From the NCBI GenBank assembly GCA_050084515.1, contig CM114271.1, positions 5,146,001-5,210,000 on the forward strand: a DNA stretch of 64,000 nt, read 5' to 3'. This document shows, one piece after another, positions 1-53,482 of this stretch (the first letter of the stretch is position 1; every line of letters starts with the position of its first letter). The notes under the pieces were generated by a model that was given only the letters and a program-made list of their open reading frames with translations, was not told the origin of the DNA and searched no databases. The stretch comes from Blasia pusilla (lineage: Eukaryota). Position numbers and translations under genes: made by a program.

Positions 1-290
1 CCTTGACCTCCTACATCAGGTCAAGAGCCAAGGAGGTGACTTGGGAGAATAGGTTACCATGGAGAGAGCTTGGGAGAGGAGAGGGGTATACCTCAAGGAG
101 AGAGAGCTTGAGAGCTCATTCTCTCTTTGTTGAACCTCTTGGCATGAGGCACGGAGCTATGGTACCTTGCCTTGTGAGTGTAACCCAAGCCTCTCATTAG
201 GAGAGTGGGTTTGGTTTGACATGAGAGAGAGTGCACACCTTTGAGAGCTATGGTGTGAGATGGTGGAGAGAGAGATTGGATCTTACTTTA
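1..290 (+). repeat. Terminal repeat A1 of copy 1 (partial)
   Basis: Matches 9667-9957 with about 4 differences by eye; homology ends at ...GGATCTTACTTTA. Confidence 0.92.
87..130 (+). promoter_or_regulatory. Putative LTR core promoter (TATA plus initiator), predicted TSS ~118
   Basis: TATA at 87-90 and Inr-like CTCATTC at 115-121, ~28 nt apart; conserved in copy 2 (48025-48059). Confidence 0.5.
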
Positions 291-305
291 CAAAGAGAGA
301 ATGAG
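290..305 (+). promoter_or_regulatory. Putative self-priming primer binding site
   Basis: ACAAAGAGAGAATGAG, at the end of repeat A1, is the exact reverse complement of CTCATTCTCTCTTTGT (115-130). No TGG/tRNA-type PBS is present. Confidence 0.7.
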
Positions 306-884
306 AGAATGAGAGAGTGAGAGAGCTTCATGGGGGAGCTCACTGGTCACTCCCTGTTTTTGCAGGTTGGGACCGTGTTCCCCGTTCAGCGGCTCATGGG
401 AGTGCTCACCGGAGCAAGGGCTGCTTTCATTACTCTTTGCATTTGCCGATTTTTCGTTTGGAAGAGTGGCGCGCGGAAGCGCTGCCCAATTTCTGATAGG
501 GATTGAGTATGAGGGCAGGTTGCCCCATGCTGGTGCTCTCGGGAGCACCATGTAGCTTGCTGATATGTATTTTTACAGATGTTACATTTTCGTTGGGAGA
601 AATCAGCGCGGGAGCGCTGCGGAATTTTGTGTAGGAGAAAGAGACATTGGGCTTTACGACAATCCCTGTCAGGTTTTACTGAAATGTCCAATTCTAAATA
701 TTTTTTGATGGTAGCGTAGATCGTGAAGCTGTGCACGCTGTGCAACAAACAATACACAATTTGGAGTTGCGAGCAAAACGTTATGGGCAATCTTGTAAAG
801 CTGCCATTGCTAGGTGATTTTTAGGGTTAAATCGTGCAAACCCTAAATCAGCCGCCACACCGGCGGCGGCCGTCGCCATCATAG

Positions 885-1010
885 TCACCGTCAACGGTCG
901 ATGGTCAACCATCACCGTCAATGGTCAACCGTCACAATCAACGGTCAACCGTCACCATCATCGGTCGGCCGTCACCATCAACGGTCAACCGTCACTGTCA
1001 AAGGTCCACC
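885..1010 (+). repeat. Degenerate short tandem array (ACCGTCA/ACGGTCAACC units) in the element leader
   Basis: Repeated accgtcaacggtc / ggtcaaccgtcac units; a shorter version is at ~48820-48892 in copy 2. Confidence 0.6.
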
Positions 1011-2279
1011 ATCCATTGTCCACCCTTTGGGTGCCATTGCCGCCATTACGGAGTGGAGGGTCTTCCATGACATTCGTTGATTCTTTGACTTGCGTCGCCA
1101 CCACATACTTTGTTTTGGCCGCCACCGTCATCGCAGTTTCTTCATCAACCAGTGAAGGCAGATGACCTCTGGTTATGGTGTTTGAGTTTTGATTTCATGC
1201 TTCTATGTTGTGATTGGTAGCCGCTCGCGACGATCGAGTATCGTGCCGTGACGCCCGTAGCCGCAACACGCCGCCGATTGCCACGCCGTGCCGCTCGTGG
1301 CCGCACCGCACCATCTCGATCGCGGAGCCGCACCGTCATTGTGGAGCGAGTGTGGGATTATTATTGATTGAGGAGGGTATGCGCCGAGTGCCGCATCCCA
1401 CCATCGAGGGCCGCGTCTTTGTTCGTCGAGCCGCCTGCGTCGCCGCAACGCCGCACCGTTCGCCGGGACCGCACTTTGTCTATCGAGGAGTTTTGAGCGC
1501 ATCGATGGAGGAGGAGTATGACTTGCTGATTGGAGGAGTTGTCTCCACGATCGAGTTGGGGTCGAGATTTGCGATTCTTGCCGAGGAGCGACATCGACAT
1601 GTGTTCAGTTACCCATTCGGTCCTTTACCCTACACGTGTGAGGGATTCGGGATTTATTTGGGGATATTGGGTGTGTGGATCGAGAGCATCATTTATGTAT
1701 GTGGTTTAGGGGACATAGACTTGTGTGGGATGTCCGGAGTTGAGGGTAGGTTGTCGATGAGATGATAGCCTGGTCGATTTGCCGCACCACGCCGCGTGTT
1801 ACCGCACGTTACACGTCTCGGGGAGAGAGAGTGTAGATCGAGTGCCGCATGTTTGGGATGAGTGATTGAGGGATTCCTCACGAGGTTGAGTGATCGGGTG
1901 AGAGGGGCACGAGGGTCATCACGAGTCTATTCGGGACTTTGAGAGGCGAGGTGGTGAACCCGAGAGTAGCTCTAGAGGTTTTACGCGGATTGGCGCGAGG
2001 TTTCGAGGGTCTCCACGTGAGGGACCACCTCGACCTCCTTCTGTGTCATCGTCAGACAAAGGGGAGGGTGTAGAGGACTTTGTGAGCACATCGCCACACA
2101 TTGTGAGTGGTCCTACCAGTTGGGCGTACGAGATGGACGACCGGGGTAGAGGACGCGTAGGTTTTCAGTGCGTGAGGGCACGATTGAGTTACGATTTTAT
2201 AGCAGAGTTTAGGAGCTAGTGCGACTCCCGGCGGGCTAGGAACTCTAGAGAGTTCAACCCATTTACAGCATGGAACGGT

Positions 2280-3170
2280 ATGTTCCAGCATTTAGAGGGG
2301 GCGCCCATGGACGATTACCATGAGTTCTCTCAGAGATATGCATGTGAGATCGAGGCGTGGAGGCTCTACTATGACCCACATTATGTGTCATGGACGGAGC
2401 CGTTCCCAGATGAGGAGGAGGAGTCAGGAGAGGCTACTGCCTCTTCCACTAGTGATGTTTTAGGAGGGGTCACTCGCACGGGAGCAGTTGCACCGTCTAG
2501 TCGGGTTCGTCCCAGGTTCAACCGTGTGGTTGAGTTCTTTGCTGAGTTGAGGGCGAGCTACCAGGGGGTACGGACGGAGAAGTTGCGGAGCATCCACGAC
2601 TTCCAGAGGCGCTCGGGTGAGAGTTTGCGTGAGGCTTACACTCGCTTGCGCCGGTTGATCAACGTCACTCAGGGGGTGACAGAGGCTCAGGCTATCCAGT
2701 CATGGTATGCGATGCTGGACCGGACCCTACGGACACGGGTGCGGGAGGGGGTGCTTCTTATGAACACCTCCCCTACGTTGAGAGATGTTTTTAGGACCAC
2801 CGAGAACATTGAGCGCAACATGGCGGAGGAGAGCGTAGGCACCATGGGTTGGGCGAGAGCGATCCACGATTGTCGCACCACCTATGCAAAGAACGTGGAC
2901 TCCGAGATAGGTCGACTGTGGCACCACGAGCTCAGGGAGGATACCGAGAGGCCGTGCCACAGAGACATGTGCCTTCATATGCGGCTCAGCAGCAGCTGCC
3001 TACTATTATGTGGTGGAGCCCATCATCAGCGCGATTGCACTCGTCAGGGTCATGGACGTGTGCCTCAGCATGGAGGAGGAGATGGTGCTGCACCAGGAGG
3101 TTATCAGTGTGACTATTGTTAGAGGTATGGTCATACACGCGCCAGGTGTTTTAGTTTACATCCTGAGTTA
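2280..3170 (+). pseudogene. gag: Gag (capsid-like region plus CCHC zinc knuckles), frameshifted
   Basis: ORF 2280-3122 with QRRSGESLREAYTRL (retrotransposon gag QxxxES motif); knuckles CGGAHHQRDC and CDYC.RYGHTRARC. Confidence 0.8.
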
Positions 3171-4059
3171 CGTCTAGACCGAGGGCGAGAGAGAGCACCA
3201 GAGCGAGTAGCCGGTCCGGGTGGGCCTAGAGATCGTGCTCTAGGTGGTCCCGTTGGGGGACGAGGAGCTGGAGTTGCCCGACAGGGTGGTGGAGATGCCC
3301 GTGGAGGAGGTAGAGTACCACCACCTAGACGCGCCGAGGGAGATGCCGTACGTGAGGTGGGATGGGTGCTCCGATACAACCGGCTACAGGAGCAGATTGC
3401 CGCTATGGCATTGAGGTTACCCGATGCCGGATCCGTGGCATCGACATCATATGGAGCGCCAGAGATCCTGGAGGATCCTTGATGGATGTCGGGATTGCCA
3501 GATGGAGGCCGCAGGTTGTGACGCGTGGAGCGCCGCAGAGTTGGATCCACTCACGAGGGGAAGCCAATAAGAGACTAGGCTTCCTCAATCTTTCACGTTG
3601 TCGGCGATGAGGACCCCATCGATGAGTCCTCATCAAAGTTCCTGGAGAGTTGGTAATGTTGTTGGTATGCAAGCACGGAGGGCGATGGGATAAGCGAGTG
3701 CGACGACTCCTATTGTTGATGCTCAGGAGGGGCATGTGTCGAGCACGTTGTTGGGGCGCCACCGTTGTGTACCGCACTCCTTTATTTTCTGCCCGATGTT
3801 GTGCGTTGGGAGGTACGCCCGCCGAGGTTTTTTTGGCTGGCCGCTTCACTATGTGAGCGGAGTTGGAGTTCCGCATCACGTTCAAAGGTGATTGCAGAGG
3901 AGGTGATGGACCTGCCCTTGGAGCGGATGCTTGGGCCGTCCACGTCAGATTCATGGCAGTGCGGGTCGCTAGGATGGCGGAGATGCCCGCTAGACCCACG
4001 ATAGAGCGTGCCATGGCTTCTCCTGGTGTTGTGTTGCTTTGGATAACCAAGGAGAGGTC

Positions 4060-4440
4060 TTCTAGTTGGTGAGTCTTGGAGGTAGAGCTTTTTAGTCGCG
4101 TAGCCTTGTTGATTCAGAGCGCAACCCTTGATGTTGGGGAAAGCGTCATTTAGAGGATTGGGCTTGACGCGAGCCGATGTGGAGTGTTGTCCATTTCGGA
4201 TACTGAACATCCTTGGGTGGAGCAAGTACCACACAATATATCACCCGACAGGAGGTCGTGGTGAGGATTCGCCGGGACATCCTGAGATGAGTCCGTAGTG
4301 CGCGCCAAAGCGATAGTGGCGATGGTGAGTCCTCACGATGTCTTGGTTGGTGGAGCGATATTATACCCGATGGGGTTTTCCTGGATTACTTGGGAGAGTC
4401 GGCCTCTGAGACCAGGATGGCGTTAGGTGATGGGCGCCTT
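4060..4440 (+). pseudogene. Aspartic protease domain, degenerate
   Basis: Homologous to LLDLGAQPLMLG in copy 2 and LLDSGAQSLMLG in copy 3; downstream DVLVGG motif. Confidence 0.65.
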
Positions 4441-4809
4441 AGCTCATTACCCGTTCGATTCACAGGTGTAGTGATCGAGCAACGGCCAGGAGAGATGGCG
4501 ACCTTAGCAACATTTATCAGTGCCATCACTTGGCCTAGTGATTTGATTGAGGGACACGTCCATGCAGAGGATACTACCGTTCCTGACATTTCTATGGAGA
4601 GGAGTGTTATGGTAGCTGCATCATTCCGTGGAGGAGAGGTGCCGCTGTGGGGTTCGACTAAGGAGCTTCAACGATTGGCAGATGCGCACGTGCAAACCGC
4701 GTGGAGCGAGCGTTTGCACCAGAGCGTGACGGGTCTGAGGAACCCGAGGTAGCGGGGAGTGCTACGATGACACCCTTGGATACTAGACCCATTGTGTGGT
4801 GTACCCCGG

Positions 4810-5730
4810 AGGAGGGTATTCGAGTGTTAGATCTCTTTGGAGGGATTAGCACGGGTTAGCTGCTGATTTTGCAGGAGGAGTGCGAGTACATCGTGATTAC
4901 TTGTATGTGGAGAGTGATGATGTTTGAGGCGCGTCTCACTACGACATGTGGCGCAATTACGCCCTCGTTTTCCCGACTTATTATGCGTCGCCCGCAATAT
5001 AGGGTACCGAGTTCCCTACCGAGGATATTTTGTTGTTGGGCGCAGGACTTAGAGCGGGTAGGGACCATTGATTTGGTCATTGCCGGTTGGCCATGTCAGG
5101 GCCAATCGAGTGCTGGACGAGGCAGCGGGTTGGCTGACACTCGATCCAGGTTGTTTTGGGAGATGTTGAGGGTCTTACGGCAGTTGCAGGAGCACCAGTC
5201 TCGTTCTCCAGCCTACATTATGGAGAATGTGCCGATCTTAGGAGACTCCAAGTCACGGGTCGTGACGAGTGCTCATCAGGTGCGTGCCTGGATCGGCCCA
5301 GCAGTGTTCTTGGATGCGGCGAGTGTAGGTTCTAGAGCCCATCGCCCGCGTCTATGGTGGACCAACTTGGTGCCCCATGCGGTGTTATGGAGGGCGTATG
5401 CGAGAGTGGAGTGCCCCTCCCCTTTGTTAGTGGATTCCATTCTGGATCCAGGTCGTCGATCACAGGCAGTGAGGCACGATGATCGACCACCGTTGACGTG
5501 GGTCAACAGGGTAAGCGAGGCAGCGACGCGCCTTGCCCACGCGTTTGTGAGTTTTCCCGCTTCCTATGCATACAAGGAGGCCGGTCCTGGCTTGGTTTGG
5601 GATGACCAGGTTGGTGGAGCCCAACGCCGACGAGAGAGAGCAAGCGATGGGATTTCCCATAAGAGTGACGGCAGTACCATCAGTGTCAGAGGCATCACGA
5701 CGCCATATCTTGGGTCAGCGATGGACTGAA
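4810..5730 (+). pseudogene. C5 cytosine DNA methyltransferase domain inside pol
   Basis: Motif I VLDLFGGISTG (~4824-4856), IV DLVIAGWPCQGQS, VI YIMENV, VIII AHRPRLWW, IX EPNADEREQAMGFP, X RRHILGQ; frameshifts between motifs. Confidence 0.9.
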
Positions 5731-6194
5731 TCGCTTGACATGGATCCTCGGCTTGGGAGTGGCGAGCGGCGTCGTATGAGATCGCGACAGATCCGGGCCG
5801 GTTTGCGTTAGTGAGCCCCATGCCTACCGAGACGGTGGTGAGGCAAAGTGGTCGGGGCGAGACCGAGGAGATCTACGCACTGGGGAGATCGGAGAGACAC
5901 CCTTGGACTTCTTGGGATGTTTTGAAGGTACGCAAGGAGATGATAGCCACAACATCGGCGTGGTTTCGGAACGCACGTGGAGGAGATCGAGTTTGCGTTG
6001 GCTGCAGGAGAGCGGCCGAGTGTTGTTGTTCGAGACGGGTTGCACCATAGCAACCACCGATACCGCGCCGGAGAGTCCTACCGTAGTCACGATGGAGACT
6101 TGGGAGCCGGATATGGGCCCTAAGTTGACGGGGAGGAGAGCGGCGCCGAATACATCGATTCCTCGGGAGTTATAGGAGTTGCTTTGCGTTTAGC

Positions 6195-7520
6195 ATGGAG
6201 GATTTGGGTACGCTGAAGGGACTGGGATCCGCATTGAGTTGTCGAGTGATATGCCGATCTTCCGACAACCCTCAGTCTGATGATATGGAGAGGGCTCGAT
6301 TGAGTAGGAGCCAAGACTTGGTCGGAGCAGGACTAGTGGAGATGTCGCATGGGGAGTATGCATCCGCCCCTTTGTCATGCCCGCCAAGAAGGATGTGCAT
6401 GGCAACCGGACGGATAGGCGGATGTGTGGGGATTACCGACCTATCAATTGTGCGCAGGCGAAGTCCGATAGGTATGCCATGCCCACCCCCGAGGAGATCT
6501 TTGATGCGATTGATCACGCAAAGGTCTTCAGTTCATTGGATTTGCGAGTTGGATACCATCAGCTGCCTATCAGATTGGAGGACAGGTAGAAGATGGCATT
6601 TTGGGGCATCGATCCTCACGGGAAGGATTGTTTGTACCAGTGGCGGTTCTTACCATTTGGGTTAAAGAACGCTTGGACTGAGTTTCAGAGGGTCATGGAT
6701 AGGATCTTGGCTGGTCCGGATTTTGCTAGGTGTTATATTGATGACATCGTAGTCTTTAGCGCCACGGTTGAGGAGCACGAGCAACATCTAGAGGAGGTGT
6801 TTCGACGATTGCAATTACATGGGCTGAAGCTACATCCAGGCAAGTGCAAGTTCTTCTACGACCAGATTGAGTACTTGGGTCATACGATATACCCAGGGGG
6901 CCTTGGTGTTCAGCAGACGAAGGTAGAGGCTATCTCACACATTCCACGCCCTCTGAGATGTGAGCCGTGTTCGCGCATTCATGGGATTGGCGAACTTCTA
7001 TCGGCGATACGTTAAGGATTGATTCGATTATGGCGGCCGACCTTGCTCACCAAGGTGGATCACGAGTGGTACTGGGGGGATGAGCAGGAGCGAGCATTTC
7101 GATTGCTCAGGGCGGGTTGGCGTCCGCACCCATCTTGAGGAGACCGATCGGGGCGTCCTTTCGATTGCACCGCAGATTGGAGCATGTTGGGGCTTGAGTG
7201 GTGCTCACCCAAAGATGATGATGAGGGTAGAGAGTTTGTGGTGGCTTACGCTAGCCGCTCGAACAACGCTGCAGAGGCAAAGTGCATTCGTATGAGGGTG
7301 AGTGCTTGGTCGGTGTGGTCATCGCGCATTTCAGGTGTTACTTATTCGGCAACCCCTTTACCATCATCACTAATCATCAACCACTGAAGTGGTTGATGGA
7401 GTCCGACAAGCTTACAGGGAAGCTTGCGAGATGGGCTCTGTTGTTGTAGGAGTATGATTTTCAGGTGGTACATAGACCTGGAACGCTCAACCAGGATGCA
7501 GATGGGTTGAGTCGTAACCC
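6195..7520 (+). pseudogene. pol: Reverse transcriptase and RNase H
   Basis: RMCGDYRPIN, FSSLDLRVGYHQ, LPFGLKNA, YIDDIVVF, KCKF, YLGH; RNase H VVAYASRS and NQDADGLSR; stops and frameshifts. Confidence 0.92.
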
Positions 7521-7749
7521 ATGCCCGAGTCGGCCGAGATCGACCGGAGCTCGATGGCATGGAGAGAGTGATGAGGAGTCGGTGCCAGGATGGCACGCGT
7601 CGGCCTATTTAGGCATGTTGGCTATGGAGAGCGCAGTGTGGAGACCGATGGCGAGGTCTAGTGGAGAGTCTTTGGATCCCGAGGCCGGTGAGGACACGAC
7701 AAGTGGCGAGATATTCATGATGATGGAGTAGTCTTAGAGTACCTTCGTC

Positions 7750-9138
7750 TTGGCGGCCTTTGAAAGCACCATGGATGCTAGAGAGCGGGATCGGATCCTA
7801 CAGCGGGCCAGACGGTTCCGTTGGGAGGGGACACATGTTTTGAGGGTTTGGGAGGATGGCAGAGTACGCGTAGTGCCGCATCCTTTGCAGAGAGCACGAC
7901 TAGTGCAGCATGCCCACGAGGAGTTGGGTCACTTTGGGGTGAAGCGGACGTATAGCTTGCTCGAGATTCGATATTGGTGGCGAGGCATGCGATCGGCGTT
8001 CAGCAGTTTGTTGCCAGGTGCATGGTGTGTGATCGGGTCCGAGCATTGTTCAATGCTCCGACTCCACAGTTGCATCCATTATCGATCATGGGCTTAGGGT
8101 ATAGATGGAGTTTGGATTTTGCAGGACCTTTGCCCTTGACGGAGCGTCACTGTCGTTATGTGTTGGTGATGGTCGAGCACTTCTCAAAGTGGATCGAGTT
8201 GGTTGCATTGCCTGACAAAGCAAGTGAGGGAGTAGGTTATGCCTTCCTTGACAGAGTGCTGAGTCATTATGGCGCACCAGCTGAGGTGTTGACAGACTAG
8301 GGTACCGAGTTTCGCGGTGAGTTCCAAGCCTTGTGTGATCAGGCGCTGATCGACCACCGCACGACTTCGCGAGATCATCCTGAGGCGGATGGATTAGCGG
8401 AGAGAGTTGTGCAAACGGTGAAGAGGGGTTTACGCAAGTATGGCTTGCAGAGATGTCACCTAGGAGATTGGGACCTCCAGTTGCCATGGTTGGCGATGGG
8501 ATATAGATTCAGCAAGCAGGCATCCTTAGCGTCTTTTTCACCGTACTTGCTACTTTATGGCGAGAGCGATTTACTGCGGCCATTTGTCGAGATCTTTGGT
8601 GAGGTCTTGAACCTTGATGACCCAAATGTATGGGTGCGAGCATATTCTCGAGGGTGAGTTATTTTCGAGAGTGATGCCCATGGCGTTCGAGAACTTGGCG
8701 ATTGCACAACATCGGATACGTTGAGGTATGCGACTATTCGAGGTGGTGGTTATCGACCAACTATCCGGAGGTTTCATGAGGGACATTATGTCTATTTGCG
8801 CAGACGGCACCAACGGCGTTGGATGTGATGCAGGCGCACTATCCCGAGAGTGCGTGACATTTTGCCATCGGGTGTTCTCTTGTTGGAGGGACGCGATGGT
8901 ATGGTATGGAAGGACCATGTGCGTAATTGTGCGCCATGTCACCTTCCTAACATTGATGGTACAGTAGATCCGAGCTTAGTAGTAGTTCCCGCAGCTTGCG
9001 TTGTATGTTGTGTGGTTTGCCTGTAGTGCCACGATGCTAGTCTGTGATGGGTGTTCGAGAGGATGGCATATGGCATGTTTGACGCCACCTCTCACTAGGG
9101 TTCCTCAAGGACGATGGATGTGTCCCAGATGTACATAG
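7750..9138 (+). pseudogene. DDE integrase with C-terminal PHD finger
   Basis: HEELGHFG...CMVC (HHCC), WSLDFAGP, VLTD, HPEADGLAER. The 3' end encodes CMLC...CDGC.RGWHMAC...WMCPRC, then TAG at 9136-9138. Confidence 0.9.
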
Positions 9139-9308
9139 AGAAGGTAGTTCTACATTCCGACTTGTGTCTATGACATGGATGACAAGGAGGCGACTAACAA
9201 TGGGGCCACATGAGCACCCGGCCTTCTTGATCTTAGCGTCCGAGAGATGTATGTCATGGTAGGTAGGGATAGATGGCTATCTGGAGTTAGAGGACCTAAC
9301 CACCGGCT

Positions 9309-9317
9309 AGGGGGCGA
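9309..9317 (+). promoter_or_regulatory. Polypurine tract (plus-strand primer)
   Basis: AGGGGGCGA at the start of repeat B1; the equivalent in copy 3 is AGGGGGGGAG (minus strand, ~56612-56621). Confidence 0.65.
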
Positions 9318-9444
9318 TTGGAGATATTTTGGTTCTTCTTGTCTCGTTGTTTGGATGCCATGAGTTAGCATGGGATCATGCGTGTTTGTGTGTGTGTTCG
9401 GTGACAGCGATGTATGTTGTGTAGCGATGTGTATGCGCACGACA
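9317..9444 (+). repeat. Terminal repeat B1 (128 bp)
   Basis: Identical by eye to 9958-10085; ends CACGACA. Confidence 0.93.
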
Positions 9445-9446
9445 GT

Positions 9447-9957
9447 TGTCACGTCTTTGAGGATAGATCGGTGGGATCTAATAGAGCGCCTTCATGAGTA
9501 GTGGAGGACACGCCCGATGAGGTCGAGGGTGACGTCTTTGGCGCTTGGAAACCTGAGATAGCATGTTTCCCCGCGTTCGGCTCATTTGGAGCCATATTGA
9601 GAACTTACTATTTTAGGTAAGTACCATTTTGAGTATATGATCGACTTACTATTTTTGGTAAGTGGCCCTTGACCTCCTACATCAGGTCAAGAGCCAAGGA
9701 GGTGACTTGGGAGAATAGGTTACGATGGAGAGAGCTTGGGAGAGGAGAGGGGTATACCTCAAGGAGAGAGAGCTTGAGAGCTCATTCTCTCTTTGTTGAA
9801 CCTCTTGGCATGAGGCGGCGGAGCTATGGTACCTTGCCTTGTGAGTGTAACCCAAGCCTCTTATTAGGAGAGTGGATTTGGTTTGACATGAGAGAGAGTG
9901 CACACCTTTGAGAGCTATGGTGTGAGATGGTGGAGAGAGAGATTGGATCTTACTTTA
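9447..9957 (+). repeat. Terminal repeat A2 (511 bp)
   Basis: Starts TGTCACG; matches 1-290 and 47720-48229. Confidence 0.92.
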
Positions 9958-10085
9958 ATTGGAGATATTTTGGTTCTTCTTGTCTCGTTGTTTGGATGCC
10001 ATGAGTTAGCATGGGATCATGCGTGTTTGTGTGTGTGTTCGGTGACAGCGATGTATGTTGTGTAGCGATGTGTATGCGCACGACA
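9958..10085 (+). repeat. Terminal repeat B2, the right end of copy 1
   Basis: Duplicate of 9317-9444; ends ...CACGACA. Confidence 0.93.
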
Positions 10086-11129
10086 AGGAAGATAGCACAA
10101 CTAGTTTTAAATCCTACTTGAGCAGGCCTATTAACATCCATGGATCGCTATATAAGGACATACAAAGTACAATCCCATATCCTTCTATATGTGACGATAG
10201 GAAGAATCACCAGAGTTGGAGATTGCATGACCTGGTTCATGAACGCCTTCCCAAAGTGATAAATTAAATAATGAGTAAACCAGTGCCTATCAACAAAGAG
10301 TACCTTCACATTGTATGGATTGAGGAAAGGAAAGTCGGGCACAACTCATGCTCCACCCTTATCCATGCTTGATAGACATTCTCTACTCTCCTCAAGAATA
10401 GATTTTGGCGGAATTATTCTTCCAAGAGGGATAATCCACTCTCATTGAGAAAGTAACAAGCCAAAACATTCACTATTTTAGTATGACTAAACTCCTCTAA
10501 GGTGACAAGCCTCTCATCTTCACACACACACACCACACTCTAGAAACCTCTCATGGAGGTTTCTAGAGTGTGGTCAAGTTACTCTCCCAAGAGGGGTGAT
10601 CCATTCTCATTGGAAGAACAAGTAATCCCAAAGCCATACACTCAAGAGTGACATGAGAAACTCAAGATGTGGAATAGCAGTTGATGAACCCTTGAAGGTC
10701 CCTCCTCTTTATAAACTCACAAGAGATCCATAAGAGTACGAAATAGAACTAATCTTATCTTGTGCTATATGGCTTCCTCTCAAGGCTTAGCCAATCACAT
10801 TTTGACACAAGTAGATTTCCTTTTATCTCTTCCTAAAGATCCTCTTTTACCCACTTGATATTTTCCAAATTATACCAACTAACCTAGCCACCAACCAAGA
10901 CTACTTTTGCTTTTAATTAAAGTACCAACCTCACTACTTTAATTTTATAAAGTCATCTTTTATTTATTACCTCTTTTCCTAAAGTTGGGCCCATATAAAA
11001 GAGGCACCATAAAGAGGTTTAAATATAAGAATTTCCTTTTCCTAAGCTAATTTACTTAATACTAATACAACTCTATCTAACACTTAATGAGGAAGGAGTT
11101 TACACACTGGCTGATTTTACTATACGACA
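10086..11129 (-). mobile_element. Partial LTR of a second Gypsy family (family D), interrupted by copy 1
   Basis: Homologous to 53946-54982 and to part of 32708-33886; begins TGTCGTATAG on the minus strand at 11129. Confidence 0.85.
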
Positions 11130-14100
11130 CCGTTTGAGGATGGAAGGCCGTACTAAAGCTGAGTTTAGTTTGGAACCTCTTGAATAGATGTTTCCAAAAG
11201 GCATTCCTAAACTTCAGATCTCGATCAGACACAATGCTCTTAGGAAATCCGTGAGCTCGCCACCAACCATCCAGGAACAGTCAGGAAGTCGTGTAGGCTA
11301 TCACAGAATCTCTCGTTGGCACAAACCTCCCCAACTTGCTAAACCGATCAACTATCTCAAGTATAGCGTTGTATCCCTCAGATTCCGGAAGATTCGTAAT
11401 GAAATCCATGCTAATGCTTTGCAAGGGTTCCTCCGAGATCAGCAAAGGACAAAGTAAGCCTTGCTTCTTCGCGTAAGAGACTCTCTTCGCCTGACAGGTC
11501 ACGTAGGTCTTCACATATTGAGCAACATCTTCTTTCATGTTGGGCTAGAAGAACCTCTTGGCCAAAATAGCAAGAGTAGATTTCTCCCCTTTGTGTCCTA
11601 CCAAAGGTCCATCATGACATTCCAGAAACACTTTGGTATGTAGTTTGCCTTGGCCTATATAGATCCTGCTCTACTTAAACCTTAGCAAGCCTTGCCTCAA
11701 ACTTAGATTGGCCACCTTCTCGCCTTGCTTCAACTTCCCAAGGTACTCATTGGCTTGGGCACCCTTCATGAATCCTTTATAAATCCTTCTTTCCGGGTCT
11801 CTTTCATTAGGGAACATTGCTCTCAACACTTGTGTCGTCGATGTTATATGCTCATCCCTGCGACTTAATGCATCTGGAATGACATTTTCTTTCCCCGGCT
11901 TGTGGATTAGCTCCACATTTTTCAATGCCAAGGTTTCATGCCATTGAAGTTTCCTTGGTGTTACACGATCCTAGGTCTCAAAATACTTGAGCGATATGTT
12001 ATCGATGAATACTCGAGTTTTGTGAAGTCCCAGATAATGACGCCACTTCCTCAAGCAATGAACCACCGCAAACAACTCTTTCTCATGAGTGGGCCATTTC
12101 CTTTCGGTGTCGCTAATTATAAGATTCTTGCTCTCGTATGCTACAGGTCTCCTTTTTTGCACCAACATTCTTGCAATTGCAAAATCACTAGCATCAGTGT
12201 GCACCTCGAATGGTTGGTCAAACTTCGGCAGCTCCAAAATTGGTTCCTGCGAGAGGATTTCCTTGACTCGATTGAACGCTTTATCCACTTCCTCGGTCCA
12301 TGTTGTGTTTGCGGTCCAATTTGTGAGAGGTTTTACTATTCTTGAAAAGTTCTTCACACATGTCCGGTAAAAGTGGACCACTCCAATGAACCTCCTTATC
12401 CCCTTCACAGTGGAAGACGGTTCCCATTCGGCAATCGCGCTTACCTTCTCTATGTCTAGACTCACTCCATCTGCACTAACCACATGCCCCAAGAACTTGA
12501 TCTTTGTCAAACTGAACGCATTCGCATATAGCTTGTTCGCCCTAAGTTTCTCAAACACCGTCTTCAAATGTCAAGTGTGCTCCTCTAGTGTTTTTGAATA
12601 GATGAGTATGTCATCTATGTAGATGATCACAAACTCATCCGTATCCTTATGAAAGATGGAGTTCATCAAAGTGGTGAACGTTGGAGGTGCATTACAAAGA
12701 CCGAAAGGCATTACCACAAACTCGAACAAACCTTATCTCGTCCTACATGTAGTCTTCTCTACATTCACTTTGACAATCCAAATCTGATAATAACCTGATT
12801 TCAGGTCAATCCGGCTGAAATACTTGGCCCCTGAAAATCAATCAAAGAGGTCATCCATCCTCAAAAGAGGATAGTTATTCCTTACCGTCACTTTATTCAG
12901 CGCCCGGTAATCAACACAAAGTCTCAACTTCCCATCCTTATTCTTCACAAAGAGGATGAGCGCTCCATAAGGTGACTTGTTAGTTCGGATGTAACCCCTC
13001 TCTAGGAGTTCACCCAACTGTTTCTTCAACTCAGCAAGTTCTTCTTGATTCAACCTATATGGTGCCTTTGAAGGTGGTTGAGATTTGGGTCTCACCTCTA
13101 TCTTATGATCAACCGCTCTATGTGGTGGTAACTCAGTTGGAAGCTGCTAAGTCAACACATCTCAAATTCTTTCACATCTCTCTCGAGTGTTTCACGGATC
13201 CCCTTTGAAGCTAAATTCTCATCTCTTCCTCTTGCGCTTGAATTATCCTCTACTTGTCTCATCAAGCAAAGAAATCCTTCCTCTAACTCGACCAAACTCG
13301 TCCTCGTGATGGCGTTCACCAACTCCATCTTTCTAGGAACCTCATGAACCAATCTAACGTTCGTCCGTTTGCCATTAACCAAGACGCTCAACCTCAAAGG
13401 TCTTTGCCTCACTTCCACCTCATACACATCCAACAATGTGTTCCCCAAGACTCCATCGATTCTCTCCATGTTGCAAACTGTGAAATTCTCCTTCAACTCG
13501 AATACTCCGCATCCCACAACTAGCCCTAAAACCAACTCTAAGGTCTGGTGGGACTTGCCTTCCGAGAATCCTACCCTAATGGGTTCATCCGCCTTGGTTG
13601 TTGGAAATCCCAATGTCTTCAAGATTCTTGGGCTCAAGAATGAGTGCGAAGCACTTGTATCAACGAGCAACATCACATCGCGATTAGCGATCTTGGATCC
13701 TAGGTAAACCAAATTGGGCGTTCTCTTGGTGACTTGGAGAGATGTATCTAGATCTCCCGCCGATAAGTGCTTAGCAACAAACGCAATCATACTCGGTTTA
13801 CTAACCTTGGGCCTCACACATTCCTTAGCCATATGCCCGGGTTCGCCACAATTGTAGCAAATCACTTTGGCATTTGTTGACTTCGGGAACGGCGACCCTC
13901 TTGGCTTCACGTTGAGTTCCACTCATTTCGCTGTTGGGGCAAGAGACCCTCTGTGGTCACGCTCACCCCCATTCCAAACCCTCTTGGATGTTCCTTTGTT
14001 TTTCAATAACTTAGAAAAACCTTTCGACTCGAAGGGATTTTTGGTTTTGGACTTCATCGTCCCCTATCCGCTCCGCTAGCCTCAGAATGTGAGGCATACG

Positions 14101-14965
14101 AAAGAGGGCCTTTTTGGCGCTCGATTTGAGTCCACTTAAGAAGATCACCTTCTTTGTAAACTCATCCATGGAAAGTGAGCTCATGTGTGCATTGAACTCT
14201 CTTGCACATAAGTGCTAAGGGATCCGCTTTGTCGCAACCTCATAAACTCCATGCCATCGTGATACTCCTTATATTCCGGAGTGGATTGGTTACCAATCAA
14301 CTCCTTGAAATCTTCCCAACTCAAAGTTCTTCCACGGCCCGGATGTTCTTTACGGTGAGCCGTCCACCAGTGGAGAGCGTGATCCTTCAGAAACGTGACC
14401 GCTACAATCACCTTGTCTTGCTCATCTACCTTTTTCGCTTCGAAATAAAGTTTGAGTTCTGTTAGAAACTTGCTCACTTTCCGAGAACGCCCCATTTTTG
14501 TGAATGGCATTGGAAAATTTGTCTTACAAAGCTTCTTGTTAGAACTAGAGGCTCCATTCGACTTGAGTTCTACCATCACCTTGCTCTATTCGGCCATCTG
14601 GTCTGCCATCACCTTCATCAAATCCATCATTTGGATATAAAAGTCCGGGTTGTTTGAGTTTGGAGCCAAAGGCCCCACGGAAAGATTTGCGTTTGGAACA
14701 TCCTCATGTCTAGGACTCGACACTTTAGGAGTTGCAATGTCCACTTCTGGCTCACGGTCCGTCATTGATTCATCTCTCGGCTTTTTTGCTTTGACTCGCT
14801 GCTTCCTTGGTTCTCCGCCCTTGGTCGCCATTTGCAAGTCCTTTCTCAGATCTCCTCCTCATCTCTGGCATTTCTCCTCAAGCGTCGCGATCTTCCAGCT
14901 ACCTTGAGTTCTTCTCAAACATCCAAATCTTCTACAACCATAAGTTCACGCTCACCAAGGATAAA

Positions 14966-14976
14966 CTCTGATACCA
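14966..14976 (-). promoter_or_regulatory. tRNA-iMet primer binding site of family E
   Basis: TGGTATCAGAG, 2 nt after the LTR end. Confidence 0.85.
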
Positions 14977-14978
14977 CG

Positions 14979-15996: not shown

Positions 15997-16410
<414 letters not shown>

Positions 16411-17944
16411 AATACATACAACCTCTACTAGATGATTCAATATCTTATTACAACGTCTTTATAGGGAAGCTAATAAAATTTGTTTAATTTTCAATAGGGG
16501 AAGGAGATGGTAAGAGAGGAGGAACACACTGATGGTCTTCTTGTCATGTCTATTGTCACTTCCGTGACCGTTGAAAGCCCATATTCCAACATATTTTGGA
16601 TTGATTTGCTATGTTTGGGACTATTTCCATCGAAAATTATTTTTTGGTGGGCACATAGACTTTGTTTTTGGGACAGTTGGATGGTCACGATGGTCTTTGA
16701 ATGCCCATGGGATCCAACTCTAAGAGAGTAGAGGTATGAAGAGGGTAAAGATTGAGAGTAAGGCGGAAGGGGTGGAAAAATGAGGAAGATGGAGAGAACT
16801 TCCATCTTTTAGCAAGAGAGAGTTAGATCCTCCATAGAAAAACTCATAGAGGAGGTATGGAGCTCAGTGGATCCCTTCCTCTCTATGAAGAGCGAGAGAT
16901 GGATGGGCTTGTTTCCTTACTTGATTCCATACAGTTCTAGAAGGATAGAAAGGGAGTGACCTATAAAATTTAATGGAATATATATCTATTGCCATCAACA
17001 TGAATCTAAAATTCTTCTATCTTGTGAATTTTAGAGTGCACGTATATTGTTTAGCAACGTATATTTGACATGACTCAAAAAACTGCTCACTAGTGGGGCG
17101 TCCTTTTTGCTGTTTCCGAGCCGACTGTGACCTTCACACACTCGACTCTTCTGGCTGGGTTTTCCATCACCCTTCTTATTGAGGCCTCATATGAAAACAA
17201 ACAACGAAAAATATCACCACGAAATTTTGCATTGGTGAAAGAGCACATCAATTGATGTTCACCACAAACGTTTGTGGTTGATGTGCACCACAAACGACGG
17301 GCGACCTGATGCAAGAGGTCACCTCACTGGCCGTAACAGGTGCCAAAGTCGCATTCCAGAGCTGCGATAAGCGGCGTCGCTGAGCGGAAATAGCACTGGT
17401 TAGTTGGATATTAGGTAAGGGAAGCGGTGACGTCACTAGTCTCGTGCGACGTTGTGAACTCGCTGTGGAAACGGAATGCGGAAAGCGGAAACGATTCGCG
17501 GCGACGCGGCATTGGCCCAGGACGTGAGTGAGGCACCGCACGGAGACCTATTCCGGCCTATGGACGTCCGTTTCTTTGCAGGAAAGGCGGCACGTGATAC
17601 GAAGGACGTCATTGGTTTCGGTCACGAACTCGACGGAGGCTCTCCCATCGCTCGTGGACCTGAACACTCGCGCTTTCCTACGGTCGAAAACGCGTCGCGT
17701 GAACCGTCCAATCCTGGCGGCTTTCATGGGACCGACACCTGTCCGTCGCATGAAAGTAACAAACTGAGTACCGGGTGTCCTTTCCCCGCGAACGCGAGAA
17801 GTAAAACTCGTCGGGTGAAACCGAGCGTTTACCGGGTTTCGGGTGAAAGCGTGGGCCTGAAGCCCAGGCGAGAAGGTTGGGGGGTACTATCAGCCCGTGT
17901 TATCGCGAAGGAGCGGTGGGAGCGAATCGGAGAACGGAGGATTT

Positions 17945-32707: not shown

Positions 32708-33886
32708 TATCGTGTCAAGAGCTTTTCTTCGAGTAAGGACGGACCTTCTAGTTGCAGCAAACATTGATGTAGGATGAAATCTTTAAAAAGTTATCCTTTT
32801 TCAGTACAAAATTACTATATACACACCTATGAAGTCTCTCTAAACTACTTTACGCTTGTAGACAAGAAAAATAACACGACTAGTATTAAACTCTGCTTGA
32901 GCAGATGTATTTAAATCCATAGATTATTAAATAAAGACAAACAAAATATAATCCCAAATCCTTCCGTATGTGCTAATAGGAAGTATCACTAGAGTTGGTG
33001 ATTTCATAATGTGGTTCATGAATGCCTCCCCAAAAAGATAAACTAGATAATTAGTAAACCAATGCATATCTACAAAGGAAATCTTCATGTGGTATGGATT
33101 AAGAAAGGAAAATCGAATACAAATCGCGCTCCACCCCTATTCATAATTGATTGACATTTTCTATTCTCCTAAAAAATGGGGTTATAATAGAGTTGCTCTC
33201 CCAAGAGGGCTAATCCATTCTCATTGAAAAAGTAACATCTCCAAATCCATCCACTATCCCTAAACTAACAAGAACTCCCCAAATAACCATTTTCACACAT
33301 ATCACACTATAGAAAACTCTCGAAGAATAAACCATGATCAAGTCACTCTCCCAAGAAAGGTAATTCACTCTCATTGGAAGAGCAATGAGAGTGATCATCA
33401 TGGAGAGGAGAGAAATTCGAGGAATGAAGTAGAAGGTGATGAGCCCTTAAAAGTCCCTCCTCTTTAAATATACTCATAAGAGATTCACAAGAATACAAAA
33501 TGGGGTTAATCTTATCTTGTGTTACATGGCTTGCTCTCAAGGCTTAACCAATCCATTTTGACACAAGTAGATTATTTGTTATCTTTTCCAAAATATCCTC
33601 ATCAACTCAATTCATATCCTCCAAATTACCCTAACTATCCTAGCCACCAACCAAGACTACTTTAACTTTATTTTCATAAATACATCAATCCACTACTTTA
33701 CTTTTATATCCGAGGTCTTATTTATTATCTCTTTTCCTAAAATTGGGCTTGCACAAATGAGACAACATAAAGAAGTTTAAACAGGAAAATCTTATTTTCT
33801 TAAGTTAATTTACTTAATACTTATAAAACTCTCTGTAACTCTAATAATACAAGAGTTTACATAGTAGATCATTTTACTATACGACA
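32708..33886 (-). mobile_element. Solo LTR of family D
   Basis: Full-length diverged match to 53705-54982; ACGT target-site duplication (32704-32707 and 33887-33890). Confidence 0.82.
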
Positions 33887-36800
33887 ACGTAAGTCCAATG
33901 ATATGGAAACGTCCGTGGACGTATACTTTGTCCACATGCCTTGATTACCATAAGAGGACAATCTCTTTTGAAAGAAATAAAACTCTTTCCGAAAAGGAAA
34001 TACCATGTGTTGTATTACCTCTTATGGATAGATAATAAGATGATTATATATGGCAAATTTTTGAATGGAATGAGGAGATATATTTTTCTTCTTAGAGTTA
34101 TGAGTATTTTCAATTAAAATATTTTCTTTGATTAATGGGAAAATATCTTGAAATGGAGAATTTTCTACCTTAATAAAAATATGGAGGAGATGAACTGCAT
34201 CACACATTGACGTATGCATTTCATGGAAATTTGATTAGGTTAATACAAAGAGGGTCTCCCACTATAAGAAAAAATTCATTAAAAAATTATAAGATGGAGT
34301 TAGTTATTCAGGTTTCACCCTATTTTATTATTGGGAGTTTTTGAATCAAAATTGAATATTTTGTATGAAGGTCCAAAGACTCACATAGGATATTTAGGGG
34401 ACTTTTTAAAGGCACATATGGGTATTTCTTCGTGGTGTGGCCATAAGAATATTTGCATGGTAGGGAAAATTTTAAATGGAAACTTTCCATAAAAGAATGA
34501 GAGAATTGGTTATTACATTATTCCATGGTGAAAACTACTAAAAAAACTATGGCTCATAAGTTGTTTACTAGTTATAAATATTATAATATGTTATAAAATA
34601 TATGTATGTATGAATAATAGAAAACACTATTATTTAATTATCTTGATGGTCAACATGGATTCCAAATAAAAGAAAAACTTGAAAATTCTATGCTCTATCA
34701 TTTTTTATGGACTTTCAATGTGTAGGTCTTATTTTAAGATGAAGTAGGGAAATAGTTTTAAATAGGGAAGGGAAAATAGGGAAGTGAATTTTAATTTTGG
34801 AAGAGAGATGATATATTTTAGCTTTAGTTTAATTTAAAATTATTTTCGATTGGCCTTTTTCACGATTAGAAATAATTCTATTCTCATGGTCAAATTTTAT
34901 TAAAAAAATACTTTACTTGCCTGAAACTTACTTTCCTAATGAAAAATTGTGTGTGATATTATTTGCAGTAGATCTTCAAATTTTCAACATTAGAAGTGAT
35001 GCACATTGTGGCAAAAGAAGTGTCTATATAGATATTCTATATAATTTTTCACACCTAATGAGGAAAAAATATTTTTATAACATAAGTAGTCACTTGATAT
35101 ATGAAAAGCATTAATAATTAGGCCAAATTGAAAAGGAATAACTCAATACTATATTGATACTAGAAATAACATGCCTATGTAATTCCTTGAGTCTTTTGAA
35201 AATGGTGTAATTATTCTTTCATTTTCAAGTTTGAAAATTTTTGGAACAAGAAAGCATAAAGGAAAATTTATGATATTTGGAAAAGCCATGGGAGATAATG
35301 ATGAGTTTCAAAAATAAGAAAATTAAGAAATAAAATTAGGAATGGAAATTTTGTAGAATTAGAAAAGATGTGCCATTCCAAAAATTGGGAAAAGATTTCC
35401 AAGAGGTTTTTTTCAACGACTTATTTTTGCAAAATAAATTATGAGAGAAACCTTATTTGAAAAAAATACTAGGCCATCATTTCAAGGAAAAAGAAAAAGA
35501 AAACCTTTGAAGGATTATTTATAAAAATATCATTCAATGAAACATTTGGATGTGTGTAACAATTCTGAAATTTAAAATGAAAGATTTTCATAAATAAGAA
35601 TATAAATGGGATATGGATAATAATATAACTAATCAAAGCCCAACTATAATCTCCATGCTAGCAAATTATATTGTTTGGAAAATTATAAAATAACAATTTG
35701 GAGGATGTCATGCATTAGTAGATCCCAATATAAAATGAATTGGATTTGAATCTATTAATGAGCCACGGCACTAATGTTATAAGCAAGACAAGAGATTTAT
35801 CTATAAATGATTATACCCTCTACAAGTTCTCATCGTTTTCGTTTCTAGACACCTAGACCATCCACGTGTCCTACACACCGATGTGTTAATTACTCTCTTC
35901 TCCACCCGTCGCAAAAGCGCTGGTTTCTACCGGTAGGATCATTCACGGCAAAGATGAAATTTTTAAACACCGAAATTATAATTGTCACATCCTTCCACCA
36001 CCACGGAAGACTTTTAAGGGCCGGATCCTATTCCGTTGTGTCTCTCGAAAACTTTTGTCCATTGTCTTAACTACCCCCTCTAAATGGGAAAATCAAATTA
36101 TACAACAATTATTCAATGATAAAATGATTTTTTGTTTGGGTTGTCCATTTAAAACAAAAAAAAGTTCGTAGCGACCTGCTCCGCCGTCGATGGGATCCAG
36201 CCCTAAGGTCCGTCCACGGAATGTAATACGGTCGGTCGTGGTGAGGCTCCAAAAGTCCAACGGCGTGTTCTGACGTCGTAGATCGTCGTAATGATGATGT
36301 CTGATTCGCTGCCAGCCATCCGTACAGAAAGGTGCTCCTACAATTCAAACGCTGTACGTGATCTCTCTCCTGCGTTGGATGTGCCTCATCGACGGGAAAC
36401 TGGCTGGGCGTCTGATTTTCGTCGATGAGGAACATCCAAGTCGTCCGCCTCGTCCCAGCCAAGGATCGACGACGAATGAAGACAGCGACGGGAGTTTACC
36501 TACCCGTGAACGGGTAAGTAACCACCTTCCGCGATCAGTATGCCGTCAGCGGTCGTTCGTCGCAAAGAGCGGAATGGGCCGGGCCGGCCCCGGAAGATCC
36601 CGACGAACAGTCCACTTCCTTCCCACGGCAACTACACACGATCGATCTCTGTGCACTCTGTCAGCTTCTGCAGACTTACGATGAAAGTCCATTTTCACGG
36701 GTTGAGAGATTTCCGGATATCCCAAAGTACAGCAATCCGATTACATCTTGTAACAAGAGAAATCGGGATACTTTCAGGCATCAGAGATATTCAATTCTGC

Positions 36801-43890: not shown

Positions 43891-45497
43891 TGTCGTGCGC
43901 ATACACATCGGTGGTCACATCTACACACCACATAACACCGATCTTCCCAACACATTGGTCGATCCACTCATAAATGAAATACACTCACGCATATACATCA
44001 AAATCAGAGTAAAACTGACTCACTCGGCCTAAAACTCCACTGCTAAATTTTCATCGGCATATCGAGTCATATCCACCCTCTTCCATGAATCTTGACACTA
44101 GCATCATATGTTGCGACCCTCATAACCAAACAAACACCGAAAAAACGCCGAGCGGAACATCATAACTTTAGCATGCTCACGCTAGGATGGTTGTGCTTTG
44201 GAGAGGTCTCTTGGAAAAGTCCAAGAAAAAAAATACGGAATAGAGTTTGTGTGTTTCATGCTTTTATGGTCTTGACCATGAAATCTGGACCAAACGTGAA
44301 CCAAGACCTGAGATGAGTTGAGTCTAGGAAGGTTGGTTGCAAAAGAGATAAGAACCAGATTTGGAACGCGACTAGCGTTTGGGGATTTTGATTGTGTTTT
44401 GGACCATAACGTTTAGTCTCGAGATGCATTTGGGACAAGTAAGGTGGTGTTGGAAATCTTATGCAAAGAAAATCACAATACACAAAGATCTTAGAAAACG
44501 CTCAAGCATAGGCTGAGATCTTTTCTGAAAATAACTGCAAGTGGAGTTTGGTTGAGGGCCAAAATGAGGGGCCGACTGTCTCTTGCCAAAGTTAGGGAGA
44601 GGGTGGTGATCCCCATAATTACTAGTAACAGAGAGTGTCTCCAAGGATTCTTGGAACCCAAACCCAACTTTGGGCGCCAAATGGCGGTTCAAGGGCACAA
44701 GATGGAAGGGGAGTTTGGCATTAGGACTCGGAACACAAACGTGATCCAAGGGAGTGGATCTCAAAAGCCACACTTGGATTCCATCCCGCGACTCATTTTT
44801 GTGAGATTTGGTTAGGGACTCATTGGAAGTCCATTGGACAATTATGATTGCTAGGTATGCAAACGCCGTTTGAGGTTCTTGAACTGACCAGAAAGTGTGT
44901 TTCAAGTCTTGAGAGACTTGCTTGTAGTATAAACCAAAAAACTAGGGAGGTTGAGCTTGATGAGAGGTCGAGTCGGGAACTCAAAAAGTAAGAACATTGA
45001 TTGACCCAGACTCGACTAATGTGAGTGCGTGTTTCTGTGCAGATCAGCATTGAGAATGTGTCCTACTTAACGCACACTTTCGCAACACTAAAGATTTACA
45101 CTCAAGGTGAGTAGGCGCACAACATCCTAGTTCCTACATACACAAGCAAGAGAGGTGTTCCTAAGGCCCAACGTGAGAAGGATGGCTTGTGAAATCCATC
45201 TCTCCCTCTCTTATAGCCTTTGGAAGATCCTTTTGGCTCTTCTCCTAAAAATAGCCATCCCAACAATAGCTTGTGTGCTTAGGTTATGGGGTGACTGTTG
45301 ACTTGATCAACATGTCACTTGATTGACTGAGACCAAAATAGGGAAATCGTCAGAGACGATGTTCCCGATGCGATGGGTCTGTTGCCAACCCTATCCAACA
45401 TCTCAAGACGAAGTTACACGTACAACTGGTCATCCCGTTGATCCTCTATGTCGTCAACGTGGTAGAACTCTACCTATCGGCTAACTAAGATGTGACA
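43891..45497 (-). mobile_element. Solo A+B terminal repeat of a subfamily related to the MTase-Gypsy, with a nested family E solo LTR
   Basis: Minus strand starts TGTCACATCTT and ends CGATGTGTATGCGCACGACA (same 20 nt as the B end); TGTT duplicated at 43887-43890 and 45498-45501. The interior is diverged. Confidence 0.65.
44109..45124 (+). mobile_element. Solo LTR of family E
   Basis: Diverged reverse-complement match to 14979-15996; TG...CA ends; imperfect TSD TCATA/TCCTA. Confidence 0.82.
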
Positions 45498-53375: not shown

Positions 53376-53482
53376 TGTCGTGCGAATCCACATCGTCATA
53401 CAACATACATCGCTGATATACCATACTCACATACATACATAACATAGACGAGAGCATCCACAAACACAAGTATACCACAACT
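53376..53482 (-). repeat. Terminal repeat B2 of copy 3 (107 bp)
   Basis: Near-identical to 56507-56613; ends CACGACA on the minus strand. Confidence 0.9.

Follow-up and report, generated by a model that had tools for sequence, protein, structure and literature searches.

Split repeats of gypsy elements in the window

The stretch of DNA analysed here, 64,000 nucleotides (nt) of Blasia pusilla (GenBank assembly GCA_050084515.1, contig CM114271.1, positions 5,146,001 to 5,210,000 of the forward strand; hereafter the window), carries members of a family of gypsy retrotransposons that encode a cytosine methylase and whose terminal repeats are divided into two parts, A and B. Two of them, copy 1 and copy 2, lie on the plus strand and are 88% identical over 5.4 kb, and a third, element M, occupies the minus strand and shows 74% identity to copy 1 across 4.5 kb. 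Copy 1 has the order A-internal-polypurine tract-B-GT-A-B. The features of the three elements are as follows; L032 is a metagenome relative described below, X2 and X3 are copies of a neighboring repeat, X, and RT stands for reverse transcriptase.

1-290, plus strand: A1 of copy 1, truncated at the window edge to the final 290 nt of A; 98.3% identical to 9667-9957 and followed by internal sequence, not B
291-305, plus strand: candidate primer site of copy 1, CAAAGAGAGAATGAG, directly 3' of A1; 15/15 complementary to A positions 335-349 (9781-9795)
306-9308, plus strand: internal region of copy 1 (Pfam scan), with reading frames broken across three phases
5064-5258, plus strand: C5 DNA methylase of copy 1 (Pfam PF00145)
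6407-6889, plus strand: RT of copy 1 (Pfam RVT_1)
7174-7455, plus strand: RNase H of copy 1 (Pfam RT_RNaseH)
7888-7995, plus strand: integrase zinc domain of copy 1 (Pfam Integrase_H2C2)
8100-8381, plus strand: integrase core of copy 1 (Pfam rve)
9028-9132, plus strand: PHD finger of copy 1 (Pfam)
9309-9316, plus strand: polypurine tract of copy 1, AGGGGGCG, adjoining B1 (direct reading)
9317-9444, plus strand: B1 of copy 1, ending in CACGACA; 128/128 identical to B2
9445-9446, plus strand: spacer GT of copy 1, the 2-nt internal junction
9447-9957, plus strand: A2 of copy 1, starting with TGTCACG and containing the pairing segment 9781-9795; matches A1 and the A of copy 2
9958-10085, plus strand: B2 and right terminus of copy 1, bounded by comparison with uninterrupted X2 and X3
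10086-10089, plus strand: AGGA, presumed right copy of a 4-bp target duplication, as X2/X3 have AGGA/AGAA once here and relatives have 4-bp duplications
47720-48229, plus strand: complete A1 of copy 2, with left terminus TGTCACG and no B upstream; 91% identical to A2 of copy 1
48230-53375, plus strand: internal region of copy 2, broken off at 53375, where M has inserted; 88% identity to copy 1
53376-53482, minus strand: B2' and right terminus of M, 94% identical to B1' and 82% to B of L032; exact boundary
53483-53656, minus strand: tail of A2' of M, 75% identical to A of L032, positions 168-328
56498-56506, minus strand: spacer AC of M (56506-56505) and the A2' start TGTCATG (direct reading)
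56507-56613, minus strand: B1' of M (56613-56507), by comparison with B2' and B of L032
56614-64000, minus strand: polypurine tract of M (56614-56623) and internal region, which continues past the window end; 74% identity to copy 1

The layout and coordinates that a first-pass annotation of the sequence had proposed for copy 1 hold, with the two B copies identical at every position and the same layout in M around an AC spacer. Because M shows the equivalent order of polypurine tract, B1', AC and TGTCATG plus a second B', the B-NN-A arrangement (NN being the spacer) is not a chance tandem. In both copy 1 and copy 2, A1 runs directly into internal sequence, and a profile search with B found no B after A1 in either. 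A2 of copy 1 (9447-9957) and A of copy 2 (47719-48229) are 91.1% identical, the motif CACGACA-GT-TGTCA spans 9438-9451, and GCACGACA occurs 9 times in the window against 1.4 expected. The right termini of copy 1 and M are insertion boundaries: at the point where B2 stands in copy 1, the two other copies of repeat X run on unbroken for 40 nt or more, and copy 1 is unbroken where copy 2 abuts the end of M. Two sequences have intruded into A2' of M, repeat X and part of another gypsy element. A segmental duplication was considered for the shared flank X, which follows copy 1 and lies near copy 2, and was rejected, X being a separate repeat that is uninterrupted in two copies.

Pfam scans, with stops replaced by the letter X, covered both strands of copy 1 and three sense frames of L032 and placed RVT_1, RT_RNaseH, Integrase_H2C2 and rve in gypsy order in both elements. 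A tyrosine recombinase (PF00589) had no match in the six frames of copy 1 or the three sense frames of L032, and the minus strand of copy 1 gave no Pfam match at all, so that the HHCC/DDE integrase and missing recombinase of the first-pass annotation are borne out by domain matches. The integrase reading frame is retained in many relatives. Between protease and RT, inside Pol, lies a C5 cytosine DNA methylase (copy 1, 5064-5258; M, 59940-61253 on the minus strand), which in M keeps motifs of the DLFGG, ENVP and PNADERERAM type, and the integrase C terminus, where chromoviruses have a chromodomain, bears a PHD finger (copy 1, 9028-9132; M, 56785-56950 on the minus strand) that is also present in L032 and in protein P0027. 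The open reading frames of M thus comprise methylase motifs, RT, RNase H, integrase and PHD finger. The methyltransferase and the PHD finger were absent from the first-pass annotation, as were the short forms that make up half of the 3' ends and the recorded layout of an algal element, KnitGypsy-Dnmt3, both treated below.

The methylase reading frame of M has ~70% identity to many Marchantia polymorpha proteins with PF00145, and Calypogeia and Sphagnum proteins are also close; no Klebsormidium protein is named among the 30 matches listed for it. Judged by their domains (gag, protease, C5 DNA methylase, RT, RNase H, and integrase with PHD finger), the window elements are a bryophyte branch of the Gypsy-DNMT3 retrotransposons, the methyltransferase and PHD finger making them bryophyte relatives of KnitGypsy-Dnmt3. 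The more distant relative P0027 has the order RT-RNase H-methylase-integrase-PHD and a long C-terminal extension; the position of the methylase in Pol therefore differs between lineages.

Junctions, termini and target duplications in relatives

Alignment of the M methylase with its database relatives retrieved 56 metagenome loci, which were examined by self-comparison and by comparison with the A, B and flanking parts of L032; L007 was not counted because it is the same element as L010 (0.5% apart). Two forms were found. The long form, A-internal-B-NN-A-B, is complete in L021 and L032 and seen from its 3' side in L010, L015 and L049, with L001 running off its contig inside A2. The short form, A-internal-B with flank immediately after it, is complete in L009, L025, L030 and L051 and seen from its 3' side in L016, L018 and L022. 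B2 follows A2 in seven elements (L010, L015, L021, L032, L049, copy 1 and M), and the two forms are mingled on a tree of the 1.6 kb ending with B1. All 12 5' ends (11 loci and copy 2) read flank|A-internal, B following A in 0/12, and at all 14-15 3' ends B stands directly after the polypurine tract. Integrated copies do not carry the same LTR (long terminal repeat) at both ends, the 5' end being A only (12/12) and the 3' end B-NN-A-B or B; the ordinary identical LTRs that the first-pass annotation had held against its own reading are thus not what these copies have.

An internal B-NN-A junction is present in 10 elements, and its spacer is 2 nt in 10/10: GC in L001, L015, L021, L032 and L043, AC in L010, L049 and M, and GT in L040 and copy 1. 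ACA-GC-TGT is a perfect palindrome, from which AC and GT each differ by one transition at the spacer. The junction recurs in at least three lineages, being found in copy 1, M, the L-family and L040/L043; the last two have only 43-45% methylase identity to M, yet their A is likewise preceded by a polypurine tract, ~110 nt of B and the junction. A spacer of variable length had been named beforehand as the mark of chance tandem insertion, and the constancy observed speaks against it.

Element termini are of the TG..CA type (TGTCA..GACA). Since the window does not include the 5' end of copy 1, the 3' part of copy 2 or the 5' end of M, target duplications are unreadable there and were scored in relatives. 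In 6/6 complete elements a 4-bp duplication abuts the TG of A1 and the CA of the last B, three being perfect (CATA/CATA, TACA/TACA and TACA/TACA) and three matching at 3/4 positions (AACA/AATA, GGTA/AGTA and CTTA/CCTA). Altogether 21/24 bases match, compared with 2-10/24 at seven other offsets. Both the TG..CA termini and the duplication length agree with Ty3/gypsy (Metaviridae) LTR retrotransposons, whose target duplications measure 4-6 bp. Because 4-bp duplications flank the termini of all six complete elements, insertion is, as read from these flanks, of the integrase type in long and short forms alike.

Some further observations concern the same sites. The target duplications of the six relatives all end in A. 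The target of copy 1, as preserved in uninterrupted X2, reads ..CACG|AGGA (10080-10089 versus 53940-53949) and resembles the element end CACGACA, a likeness that may reflect chance or target preference. The first dinucleotide of A is changed from TG to TA at the internal junction of L021 (14274-14282) and L032 (14275-14283) and at the terminus of L045 (near 997). This site is a CHG on the other strand and the change recurs at the L045 terminus, so that parallel, methylation-driven decay is likely; the TA of the L021 and L032 junctions, considered as evidence against templating, was set aside, as the terminal A of L045 has an equal change at a CHG site.

Candidate sites for reverse transcription, RNA coverage and neighboring repeats

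The polypurine tract adjoins B as CTAGGGGGG(C/T)G in 12/14 L-family elements, with unrelated sequence in the other two, and the same CTAGGGGGG(C/T)G stands before B in L040 and L043. On the other side of the element, no TGG-type primer site adjoins A, and no tRNA genes were found in the window or in 25 loci. Instead, the 15 nt directly 3' of A are perfectly complementary to a segment of A itself, 162 nt before its end, in both window copies (0/1000 shuffles); in copy 2, 48230-48244 pairs with 48053-48067. In the L-family a different 12-mer 3' of A pairs with a segment ending 158 nt before the A end, with at most two mismatches in 5/9 elements (one in L001, L025, L030 and L051, two in L032), while L009, L011, L021 and L024 are without the pairing stretch of A. 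As the pairing sequence differs between sub-families and its position is equal, the pattern is compensatory, and RNA folds close the primer-site stem (z -3.1 and -2.3). The segment adjoining A looks like a self-primer site, complementary to A itself. Of the sites proposed in the first-pass annotation, the polypurine tract at the start of B stands, and at the end of A lies a candidate primer site that is self-complementary and not of tRNA type.

Comparison of the A copies bears on what is copied from what. A1 and A2 of one element share derived characters, and same-element pairs are the closest (91.4% versus 87.7-89.2%). Between elements, neither half of A groups A1 with A1 or A2 with A2; in the 3' half, identity to A of other elements is 87.6% for A1-A2 pairs, between the 86.6% of A1-A1 and the 89.1% of A2-A2. 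With the polypurine tract at the start of B and the pairing site at the end of A, synthesis would rebuild an LTR of the form B-NN-A, and that this is the LTR as defined by reverse transcription is a well-founded reading of these sites.

Two stranded RNA runs labeled with the host species were mapped on 8700-10500, with reads in the sense direction of the element. B1 is covered to a depth of 72-152 and the junction to 82-120; depth then climbs in A to 107-325 from ~9554 (with the rise near 9554-9615), falls to 39-53 in the bin with the A2|B2 joint and is 16-22 in B2. In X22, 47 reads leave A at 9957 and enter the sequence that follows A1. Such coverage agrees with a transcript beginning in A1 and, for the most part, ending in A2. 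Members of the family are very numerous, with 130,937 contig pieces mapped in X1; these DNA contigs, of ~90-125 nt, carry no long-range structure, so circles are not separable in them from genomic copies.

Several other repeats lie near these elements. A conventional gypsy element occupies 11134-14978 on the minus strand and encodes gag, CCHC, protease, RT, RNase H and the start of an integrase, inside which it is cut off at 11134. Its LTR extends from 14979 up to 15997 or 16411, and its 5' LTR end, GCGCACGACA, which it has in common with the methylase-bearing family, is followed by CG and a tRNA-iMet site, TGGTATCAGAG. At 15998-16411 and 43891-44107, an inverted A tail and B of the methylase-gypsy family precede the start of the conventional LTR, as mirror-image copies that are ~75% alike; the whole unit begins TGTCGTGC and ends GCACGACA, and either the LTR captured an inverted A-B piece or both copies lie inside solo A-B units. 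The fragment 16099-16411, lying inverted at the start of the apparent LTR of the conventional gypsy element, was rejected as an independent A-B end. A (GA)n microsatellite of ~100 nt (16007-16107) lies inside the A-like segment. Repeat X is present in three copies, at 10086-11133, 32827-33890 and 53908-54982, which are 75-90% alike, and is transcribed from the minus strand. The gypsy integrase fragment that interrupts A2' of M (55039-56239, minus strand) belongs to a third gypsy family, and as X follows the integrase C terminus of that family at one place, it is probably the family's 3' region or LTR.

Proposed modes of insertion: readings, precedents and meaning

The arrangement can be accounted for if reverse transcription and integration recognize different ends. 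Reverse transcription would rebuild the LTR B-NN-A, with the plus strand primed at the polypurine tract adjoining B and the minus strand primed at the site adjoining the A end, probably by a piece of the element's own RNA. The integrase would ignore the outer LTR ends and use the near-palindromic ..CACGACA-NN-TGTCA.. inside the LTR. The two ends of the complementary DNA (cDNA) would be joined precisely, forming the A|B joint, before the integrase acts, and nicking after CA on both strands of one junction would give CA-3' ends with 2-nt overhangs. Because the site used would lie inside the LTR, the integrated copy would be a circular permutation of LTR-internal-LTR, opened in the left LTR, that is, A-internal-B-NN-A-B with a 4-bp target duplication. 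Short A-internal-B forms could reflect cleavage of linear or circular cDNA at both sites, a circle with a single LTR, or a subsequent B1-B2 deletion, and permuted copies may have collapsed to short forms via their adjacent 338-nt A repeats. Palindromic LTR-LTR junctions are known, from published work on their integrases, to be cut by the enzymes of foamy virus and HIV-1 (PMC1180852, PMC1905944 and PMC4372172, in the parts concerned with such junctions).

We regard joined-end cDNA, opened by the integrase at the junction inside a B-NN-A LTR, as the best explanation, with a probability of about one half; the form of the cDNA, the joining of its ends and its cleavage we infer from the order of the parts, which a two-LTR circle opened at one junction, as the first-pass annotation had suggested, reproduces exactly. 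Other expectations of that suggestion were not borne out, and several points weigh against the joined-end reading, the first three of them against its simple two-LTR-circle form. A two-LTR circle has two identical junctions, so that the permuted A-B-NN-A-internal-B, which had been predicted, should be as common as the long form; it was found at 0/12 5' ends, against 7-8 long forms. The A|B joint, where microheterogeneity had been looked for, is invariant in 7/7 (identical in 5/5 long forms of the L-family and at the equivalent place in copy 1 and M), and error-prone end joining would vary. Short forms, which a circle does not require, are 7 of the 14-15 3' ends. In the RNA, the rise near 9554-9615 lies away from the pairing segment at 9781-9795, and no pile-ups of read starts or ends are reported for the two runs over 8700-10500; transcript ends are therefore unmapped and self-priming in the sense of Tf1 unproven. 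No circular or linear cDNA was observed. Finally, all copies are old, with A1 and A2 90-98% alike and frames broken, and because of this age the origins of the short forms and of the missing permuted forms are not distinguishable. A fuller claim, that a palindromic end junction built into every LTR is the regular substrate of the integrase, that joined-end (circular) cDNA is obligatory and that reverse transcription is self-primed, is possible and somewhat doubtful as a whole.

A rather unlikely alternative, and the one that best meets these difficulties, is a restoration of ends in the style of DIRS elements, in which the internal B-NN-A would be a stored copy of the joined termini and no circle would be cut by integrase. 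The template RNA would be without the A1 start and the B2 end, RT would rebuild both plus 2 extra nt at each, and a linear A-internal-B-NN-A-B cDNA would be inserted conventionally, short forms being later deletions between B1 and B2. Such a process accounts for the missing permuted copies and the unvarying A|B joint, and the interspersion of long and short forms on the tree is in its favor, as is the sense RNA that does enter B2 (depth 16-22). The equal layout of tyrosine-recombinase elements is accounted for in this manner in PMC7192593 and PMC4157794, and the internal region of DIRS-1 was shown there to be essential. Against it, A1 and A2 show no positional inheritance, the 3' half of A being no exception; ordinary LTR synthesis suits a polypurine tract placed precisely at the B start and a pairing site placed precisely at the A end; RNA depth in B2 is 5-10 times below that in B1; and nothing is known that would halt copying 2 nt past the junction.

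Two other explanations fare much worse. That a tyrosine recombinase is supplied in trans by an element of DIRS/Ngaro type, with the gypsy integrase idle, draws on split direct repeats being a hallmark of PAT/Ngaro elements, and is very improbable in view of the 4-bp target duplications and TG..CA ends, the lack of a recombinase domain in the scanned copies and the integrase frame retained in many relatives. An ordinary element with LTR A-B that underwent a secondary rearrangement, a tandem or nested insertion by chance, or an artefact of assembly is already contradicted by the observations and has next to no chance of being right. The A-B unit does have TG..CA ends, and its final GCGCACGACA also closes the LTRs of the window's conventional gypsy element, where CG and the tRNA-iMet site come next; B follows A at none of the 12 5' ends, however, it directly follows the polypurine tract at all 14-15 3' ends, and the 2-nt spacer holds in 10/10 elements, in lineages down to 43% methylase identity and in several assemblies.

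An alga has already furnished a record of this family with its odd repeats, to which the bryophyte elements add further members. KnitGypsy-Dnmt3 of Klebsormidium nitens (de Mendoza et al. 2018, PMC5890265) is given a DIRS-element repeat structure with gypsy domains in the legend to Fig. 4c, and the legend to Fig. 1e defines the DIRS structure as A-coding-B-A-B. The likeness, drawn from domains and layout as these legends present them, covers the gypsy domain set, a C5 DNA methylase inside Pol and the A-coding-B-A-B repeats, whereas the host is an alga, the nearest named proteins here come from Marchantia, Calypogeia and Sphagnum, and the integrase here has a PHD finger. The main-text passages of PMC5890265 on KnitGypsy-Dnmt3 mention no target duplications, junction anatomy, primer sites or mechanism. 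Our literature search for the layout in gypsy elements returned only this 2018 paper and a 2026 preprint that names Gypsy-DNMT3 in streptophytes in passing, and PMC11982613 contained nothing bearing on it. In the literature searched, no account was found that joins the split-repeat layout to a DDE integrase, 4-bp duplications, a fixed palindromic 2-nt junction and a self-complementary primer site.

DIRS, PAT and Ngaro elements are not known to leave a target duplication of several bp on insertion. The order A1-internal-B1-A2-B2, with the internal B1|A2 corresponding to joined termini, is shared with PAT, Ngaro and TOC elements as PMC4157794 defines them in its account of their structure. Those elements differ from the ones studied here, which have a DDE integrase, no recombinase found, 4-bp duplications, TG..CA ends, a 2-nt spacer and gypsy-type RT and RNase H. 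At retroviral two-LTR circle junctions, a retroviral-type integrase is described, in the studies of such cleavage, as cutting abutted LTR ends and as able to rescue circles for integration; this is a side pathway with a joint made after synthesis, whereas here the junction is in every LTR and would be the regular substrate. Retroviral joints have 4 bp between CA and TG, compared with 2 in the bryophyte elements. At circle or dimer junctions of the IS3/IS30 type, abutted ends 2-3 bp apart are likewise the substrate of a DDE enzyme, those elements being bacterial DNA transposons without reverse transcription.

For priming, the closest likeness is to Tf1/Tj1, where, by the account of the primer in PMC4600332, the site beside U5 pairs not with a tRNA but with a segment of the 5' LTR RNA of the element itself; the primer there is the very 5' end of the mRNA, whereas here RNA depth does not put the start at the pairing segment. 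Troyka, which the first-pass annotation had wrongly credited with a bipartite LTR, is unrelated: the description of its termini in Kojima 2025 (PMC12440569) gives 3-bp duplications and CG..CG ends, in animals, with no split repeats, while 4-bp duplications and TG..CA ends are those of the bryophyte elements, and on that description the likeness lies only in both being atypical gypsy-like lineages.

A DDE integrase coupled to split repeats leaves marks that can be counted, namely 4-bp duplications, a palindromic junction with a constant 2-nt spacer, and long and short forms without permuted ones. Since the 1980s, ideas on how split-direct-repeat retroelements are rebuilt and inserted have been untested models, and for retroviruses it is an old dispute whether joined-LTR circles can be true precursors of integration. 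In bryophytes the present family is numerous and expressed as RNA, and the laboratory model Marchantia has close relatives of it, which makes the question of insertion testable. Its own cytosine methylase and PHD finger link insertion to chromatin. If the joined-end reading is true, the split-direct-repeat layout would follow from the opening of joined-end cDNA inside the LTR, whichever enzyme opens it.

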